Shown here: positions 41,248 to 41,580 of the stretch, one piece after another
Layout of the letters: each line of letters begins with the position of its first letter
Numbering within the stretch: position 1 is the stretch's first letter
Assembly: GCA_037305845.1 (NCBI GenBank)
Contig: CP147778.1
Coordinates: 1,504,001-1,568,000 of the forward strand
Direction of reading: 5' to 3'
Length of the DNA stretch: 64,000 bases
DNA from: Candidatus Freyarchaeum deiterrae
GTDB taxonomy: Archaea; Asgardarchaeota; Jordiarchaeia; Jordiarchaeales; Jordiarchaeaceae
Translations under genes and position numbers: made by a program
The notes under the pieces: generated by a model
What the model saw: the letters and a program-made list of their open reading frames with translations, nothing else
Told to the model about the DNA's origin: nothing
The model's database searches: none

Positions 41248-41409
41248 TGGAGCCCCGGACGGGGGTTTCAGAGTCACACTAAAAGTGCAAGCTCTATCGA
41301 ACCCGCGACCTACAACTCACTCGGACCACATTTGGAATCTGTGGTTGTACGAGGCTGCCGCTCTACCACTGAGCTTTCTCGCCTCTTACTTCACTGGAGG
41401 AACCGAGGC
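41248..41409 (-). tRNA. tRNA-Thr(CGT), three introns (8/9 at 41376-41401; 37/38 at 41318-41347; 59/60 at 41265-41295)
   Basis: Acceptor GCCTCGG/CCGGGGC+T+CCA. BHB helices CTCG/CGAG, CTCG/CGAG, TTCG/TGAA. Confidence 0.88.
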
Positions 41410-41580
41410 TCACCGAAGGCTCCAATATTCTTGAAATTCGAAACAGACCTTAATAATTTTTGCTATGCGTCAATACCATTTCAAAAGAATATTTTAACGC
41501 TTTTCCATGAACACAAGAAAGAACCTCAAATTCAGGAGACGCATCGTAAGTAAGTTAGAGTTTAAAAATAGTATTAGTGA

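Follow-up and report, generated by a model that had tools for sequence, protein, structure and literature searches.

A leader-borne spare acceptor strand as a probable cis-acting helper for splicing of an 8/9 intron in an Asgard tRNA-Thr(CGT)

The tRNA-Thr(CGT) gene of the soil Asgard archaeon Candidatus Freyarchaeum deiterrae raises a concrete question: how can an intron be removed if the helix by which it is recognized competes with the tRNA's most stable stem? The gene lies on the minus strand (41409-41248) of the window, the 64,000-nucleotide stretch of DNA that was analysed, and carries three introns, at 8/9, 37/38 and 59/60. Heavy interruption of tRNA genes has been published for Asgard Jordarchaeia and Atabeyarchaeia (PMC11291895; bioRxiv 10.64898/2026.10.13.758758). 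Here we propose, with a probability of about 0.72 and from conservation, the association within the genome and folding models, that the leader of this precursor acts as a cis-acting splicing helper and that splicing precedes cleavage at the true 5' end; the leader would probably keep the far end of the tRNA aside until the intron is cut.

The gene was detected by neither ARAGORN nor Rfam. A profile tolerant of introns, derived from compact Asgard tRNAs and independent of the BHB motif, placed insertions at 8/9, at 37/38 and in the T loop, with stems of 7, 4, 5 and 5 pairs, and BHB geometry fixed the third intron at 59/60. The spliced product is 75 nt long and gives a cloverleaf with U8, A14, G18-G19, U33, a T-loop, the anticodon CGT and U73-CCA. 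No second Thr-CGT gene was found in the tRNA census of the genome. Read in the direction of the gene, the locus comprises:

41450..41463, minus strand: BRE/TATA-like promoter (TATA at 41456-41450), from which transcription is predicted to begin near 41426, at the leader copy's head
41413..41424, minus strand: spare acceptor strand TGGAGCCTTCGG in the leader, 12/12 positions invariant in 7 genomes, with a duplex of -18.3 kcal/mol, the strongest among 45 tRNA genes
41410..41412, minus strand: proximal leader TGA, part of outer BHB helix h; the -3 base is C in the homologue L211, which leaves 4 bp
41402..41409, minus strand: exon 1, tRNA positions 1-8, GCCTCGGT, with positions 3-6 as the BHB central helix
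41376..41401, minus strand: intron 1, at 8/9, 26 nt, hBHBh' (genome 1545401-1545376, the same in PMC11291895 Supp. Data 4)
41348..41375, minus strand: exon 2, A9 to A37, with the D arm and anticodon CGT, from profile and BHB enumeration
41318..41347, minus strand: intron 2, at 37/38, 30 nt, without a counterpart in congener G002
41296..41317, minus strand: exon 3, A38 to U59, from BHB enumeration
41265..41295, minus strand: intron 3, at 59/60, 31 nt, hBHBh'
41248..41264, minus strand: exon 4, target of the leader copy, with the 3' T-stem strand, the 3' acceptor strand, U73 and the encoded CCA

The initial annotation of this DNA had described a strict BHB that places a 26-nt intron between U8 and A9 and leaves an 8-nt first exon, and both the profile and the BHB enumeration agree with it. 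The central helix is CTCG/CGAG (H 4/4), flanked by an inner helix of 4 bp and an outer helix of 5 bp, and the motif is kept in six congeners. Exon 2 begins at A9 (41375), and cutting each bulge behind its second base yields a U8-A9-G10 junction. Among the six congeners the exon bases of the bulges are invariant, while base 3 of the 5' bulge can be T, G or C and base 2 of the 3' bulge A, T or C; since the variable bases belong to the intron and the exon bases are fixed, the pattern fits cuts at 8/9. The length of the intron ranges from 21 to 26 nt among congeners through changes in its loop, with the stem and H' invariant. The outer helix h pairs the leader TGA and G1-C2 with G10-A14 over 5 bp; neither this helix nor the introns at 37/38 and 59/60 appear in the initial annotation. 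Because the BHB helix needs positions 3-6, the BHB and the acceptor stem are mutually exclusive.

Judged by its sequence, the 8/9 intron belongs among the ordinary BHB introns, although its position is rare. It resembles the non-canonical BHB introns of Thermoproteales and of intron-rich Asgard archaea in its strict hBHBh' form, in a length of 21-31 nt, in the presence of several introns per gene and in the two EndA paralogues of the host (two PF01974 genes over the cut-off), and differs from them in that its outer helix is partly built by the leader. In the initial annotation 8/9 was not known as a described intron position. PMC11291895 already lists the Thr 8/9 intron in Supplementary Data 4, row 32 (Freyarchaeia tRNAscan table), without comment in its text; the tabulated coordinates of the window's tRNA genes agree with ours to the base. 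In the text of the review PMC4090602, intron positions are given as 3/4 and then from 20/21 onward, without 8/9. RNase P RNA is also present in the host genome. The match (G000:C1:1698618-1699006, plus strand, L354) spans 389 nt against a model of 288 positions, indicating long insertions.

Upstream of exon 1, the leader can pair with the strand that is the partner of the true 5' end in the mature tRNA. Leader positions -15 to -12 pair with A76, C75, C74 and U73, and positions -11 to -4 form an in-register duplex with 72-66 that includes two G-U pairs and a bulged C. In this genome the duplex comprises 12 bp and one bulge, as initially annotated, whereas the conserved part is only 11 bp (66-76): the twelfth pair, between 41425 and the A after CCA, exists in this genome only and is unformed in L211, so that the conserved duplex ends at A76. 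It should be noted that the leader quoted in that annotation starts at 41425, one base beyond the range given there. Its estimate of about 9 bp for the true 5' end was reproduced on recomputation (9 bp). The copy is identical in 7/7 related genomes, which are kin and hence dependent, against 2/20 identical positions upstream of it. Both strands of the duplex are invariant across these relatives, with no compensatory changes, so the pairing comes without covariation proof. Among 20,000 random 40-nt windows of the genome, 48 reached -18.3 kcal/mol. Searching the whole genome for perfect 10-nt leader/CCA complements gave chance hits only, because the Thr copy contains wobbles and a bulge. An A[TA]TATTAA block, invariant in six congeners, precedes the copy by about 31-36 nt, and this spacing makes the head of the copy the likely start of transcription. 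A leader hairpin, C(UUCG)G, was set aside, since it has a single closing pair.

The energies of the BHB and of the native acceptor stem were compared in ViennaRNA under hard constraints. With the leader, the BHB minus native difference for Thr was -4.6 to -7.6 kcal/mol, and without it +1.3 to +7.3 kcal/mol. The sign flipped in the presence of the leader at all 17 Thr, tRNA-Phe and initiator tRNA (iMet) loci, with a shift toward the BHB of about 6.5-13 kcal/mol. Replacing the in-register core by A abolished the flip in 6/6 cases, and removing the anti-CCA part cost 3-7.5 kcal/mol; the TGA of the Thr leader contributed about 3 kcal/mol in four genomes and nothing in two. The minimum-energy fold of this genome's precursor contains the leader duplex and lacks the BHB, which is 1.4 kcal/mol less favourable, and shuffled copies, which are GC-rich, at times scored equally well. 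After removal of all introns, the two-dimensional model still favoured the decoy fold by 2.7-4.6 kcal/mol, so release would depend on tertiary folding, on proteins or on an initial cut by RNase P. When the precursor was cut before the copy's own G, Thr flipped to the native fold by 5.6 kcal/mol, and Phe and iMet stayed in the decoy fold. The release of the decoy is the weakest step of the model.

Among the 45 tRNA genes of the census, which is incomplete in that tRNA-His is missing, three carry introns that borrow the acceptor strand: Thr at 8/9 (positions 3-6), Phe at 9/10 (4-7) and iMet at 10/11 (5-8). The additional features are:

43618..43625, plus strand: spare acceptor strand of the tRNA-Phe leader, TGCCGTCG, invariant in 5/5 genomes, -14.9 kcal/mol
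43648..43842, plus strand: tRNA-Phe(GAA), interrupted by four introns, of which the first lies at 9/10 (43657-43683) and has positions 4-7 as its central helix
G000:C1:1729270-1729446 (L092), plus strand, outside the window: tRNA-iMet, with the 10/11 intron, a second intron within the D-loop, plus the leader copy GTAGCGGGA

All three acceptor-borrowing genes have a leader copy, compared with none of the other 42 in this genome. Their leader/3'-strand duplexes (Thr -18.3, iMet -17.6, Phe -14.9 kcal/mol) take ranks 1-3 of 45, the best of the other 42 reaching -8.4 kcal/mol; random ranks would give this in 1 of 14,190 cases, although it involves only three events. Random genome windows matched the Thr, Phe and iMet energies in 0.06-0.3% of trials. 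The three copies are mutually unrelated in sequence, and each fits the 3' strand of its own tRNA. In the Phe leader the paired 8 nt are kept in 5/5 congeners while the spacer length varies by 5 nt, and the iMet copy is kept in 6/6 congeners. Conservation, the association within the genome and the folding models support the initial suggestion of a second instance of a decoy leader, with Phe as the second and iMet as the third. The "anti-CCA" part of that description holds for Thr, whose leader covers the CCA fully; cover is limited to 73-74 in iMet and to 73 in Phe, and is absent in Borrarchaeum. Since pairing with the CCA is peculiar to Thr, the element in common is the anti-acceptor one. The Phe and iMet genes are absent from the published table for Ca. 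Freyarchaeum deiterrae, and tRNA-Phe was not seen in congener G002 or in the sister family. The Phe leader has, in addition, a conserved TCTCCC complementary to GGGAGA of the D arm, and the proximal leader of iMet can also pair with positions 1-4.

Intron and copy are also absent together. In the sister family, the orthologues of Thr-CGT (5/5) and of iMet (5/5) have neither. In a scan of 400 Asgard genomes, Thr-CGT genes without U8 before A9 were confined to this genus and Borrarchaeum (Sifarchaeia). The Borrarchaeum Thr-CGT genes (L190-L194) carry an 8/9 insert together with a 7-bp in-register leader copy of different sequence in 5/5 genomes. A 6-bp inner helix sets both cuts of this insert at 8/9, and its central helix has 2/4 pairs in the 8/9 register; a strict BHB could not be drawn for it. 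In two of the Borrarchaeum genomes the entire 5' region of Thr-CGT is present once more as a tandem duplicate. A wider pattern detected a strict 9/10 intron in tRNA-Lys(CTT) of a single MAG, G033 (L321:1460-1630), with no clean leader copy and no computed fold flip. The leader of this Lys gene extends the native acceptor stem, and its complement is wobble-rich and distant; the lack of a copy there counts against the strict necessity of one. One Atabeyarchaeia leader, of tRNA-Asn, reaches -14.0 kcal/mol without an acceptor-borrowing intron, and about 29 Atabeyarchaeia tRNA genes contained no introns before 13/14, hence provided no positive test. Across 185,579 genomes, the exact Thr-like 8/9 pattern, which is specific to Thr-like genes and blind to other isotypes, matched only Jordarchaeum-group records and non-tRNA chance sites. 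A loose scan of metagenomes added a single new homologue, L211.

On the proposed mechanism, transcription of the Thr gene would begin at the leader copy, which would capture the 3' acceptor strand and the CCA as a decoy; exon 1, freed in this way, could build the BHB, and EndA would cut at 8/9. The leader duplexes would tether the short 5' piece for ligation. Until splicing, G1 would offer no RNase P site and the CCA would be masked, and RNase P would reach G1 only afterwards. This order would be the reverse of the ends-first order of Methanopyrus, where M. kandleri trims its ends before intron removal (PMC3695527). A precursor trimmed first would be stuck in the native stem, so early 5' cleavage would have to be blocked. 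How the decoy is released is a more speculative matter, and either tertiary folding or an initial cut by RNase P at the G of the copy itself may be involved. Such a cut would remove the anti-CCA part and let the true strand win, after which a second cut could take place at G1. A delay of RNase P until splicing is complete, as initially suggested, agrees with the conservation, the association and the folding models; since the copy, paired in register, might serve as a substrate of RNase P in its own right, "delay" may nevertheless mean a two-step cleavage.

If the model is correct, pre-tRNA leaders, usually deemed disposable, can hold a programmed folding switch that orders splicing and 5' maturation. 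It would also explain the scarcity of introns near the 5' end, because each would need a second, matching change. A broader version, which we hold tentatively and at somewhat less than even odds, is that archaea repeatedly evolved a spare acceptor strand in the leader as an RNA element not described so far, that it is required for the splicing of introns at 8-10, that the ends-first order is reversed with it, and that it is released by an initial RNase P cut at the mimic stem, ahead of the formation of the true 5' end.

The masking of the CCA could also be read as a quality-control lock, in which the leader would chiefly shield the acceptor strand and CCA of the unspliced precursor from end-processing and charging, and EndA could manage the BHB unaided. 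The Thr copy stops exactly at A76 in 7 genomes, the Lys gene of G033 apparently handles a 9/10 intron without a copy, and a host that trimmed ends before removing introns, as M. kandleri does (PMC3695527), would need such a block. However, in Phe, iMet and Borrarchaeum the CCA is covered partly or not at all, some 40 other tRNA genes, the majority intron-bearing, have no lock, and the core alone determines the fold switch. We regard the lock as unlikely to be the explanation by itself; it is compatible with the helper role rather than exclusive of it.

Less probable again is that the copy is a neutral relic, a small duplication of the 5' end left by the arrival of an intron or mobile element and now functionless. 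The Thr leader and exon 1 do form a tandem repeat, GAGCCT(T)CGGT x2, the copies lie about where a normal gene start would follow the TATA box, and the further duplication in two Borrarchaeum genomes points the same way. Duplication may still be how the copy originated. However, loss of function fits poorly with 12/12 invariant positions in the copy against 2/20 adjoining ones, or with a Phe spacer that changes in length while the paired 8 nt stay; moreover, the copy does not flank the intron, unlike a target-site duplication, and other introns have no such copy.

Two further explanations appear very improbable. The upstream copy could be the genuine exon 1, with the segment that separates the two copies acting as another small intron of the acceptor stem, as 3/4 introns are known in Thermoproteales (PMC4090602) and the promoter spacing suits a start near the first copy; however, no junction with at least 3/4 central pairs was found before or after splicing in 6/6 Thr genomes, the extra U of the copy breaks the register of the stem, and the intron would be 11 nt. 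Conservation of the block as DNA (an initiator or factor-binding element), with its complementarity incidental, would suit its place at the predicted start site, but the Thr, Phe and iMet blocks are dissimilar and each fits the 3' strand of its own tRNA.

The helper role proposed for the Thr leader can be set beside several known systems. Among them are short leaders that pair with N73-CCA (extended acceptor stems) and the external guide sequences of RNase P. As in those cases, the Thr leader pairs with the discriminator and CCA, and its in-register duplex on the T arm resembles an RNase P substrate; unlike in them, the true acceptor strand is replaced by a complete second one, and this is seen only in genes with an intron that borrows the strand. 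The nearest functional parallel is offered by the leader/trailer helix of split and tri-split tRNAs (Nanoarchaeum equitans, Caldivirga, Staphylothermus, Aeropyrum; PMC3218864, PMC4033280), where a non-exon leader likewise pairs, sets up the BHB and joins the pieces. In split tRNAs, leader and trailer pair in trans at the splice site and EndA removes both (PMC3218864, PMC4033280), whereas here the 5' leader would pair in cis with an exon, at the 3' acceptor strand and at a distance from the splice site, and RNase P must remove it. A split, trans-spliced tRNA was itself rejected as a description of the locus: the Thr exons are contiguous behind a single promoter, and exon 4 is the partner of the leader. 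Permuted tRNAs (Cyanidioschyzon, Thermofilum pendens; PMC3218864) share the long leader and splicing before formation of the true end. In contrast to these, the Thr exons are in normal order, the termini have no BHB and no circular intermediate is implied; a permuted gene was likewise rejected, given the normal exon order and an upstream piece that copies the 5' strand.

A leader role is described neither in PMC11291895 nor in bioRxiv 10.64898/2026.10.13.758758, a preprint in which the word "leader" occurs 0 times, and no published description of such a leader helper was found in the literature searched, which did not extend to subscription papers such as Sugahara 2008 or to SPLITSdb. What appears to be new here is the helper role of the leader, the 8/9 intron position being already on record as a software call.

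The census also touched on the identity of other tRNA genes. No tRNA-His was present in the results of ARAGORN, Rfam, the intron-tolerant profile or the published table for this genome, and its gene may be very heavily interrupted. In the window, 41581-41739 (minus strand) was published as Met(CAT); it has a Glu-type body, and a 16-nt intron at 34/35 (41688-41673) with the central helix GGGC/GCCC would yield the anticodon CTC, so that the gene is probably tRNA-Glu(CTC). At G000:C1:1326639-1326821 (plus strand), published as a low-score Ser(AGA), the profile gives tRNA-Cys(GCA) with four insertions. In addition, 3' partial copies without the 5' acceptor strand were found for tRNA-Ser(TGA) (G000:C1:1598107-1598269, minus strand, 20 kb from the intact gene) and for tRNA-Leu(GAG) (1888795-1889092, plus strand, 0.8 kb from the intact gene); both are possibly integration scars.
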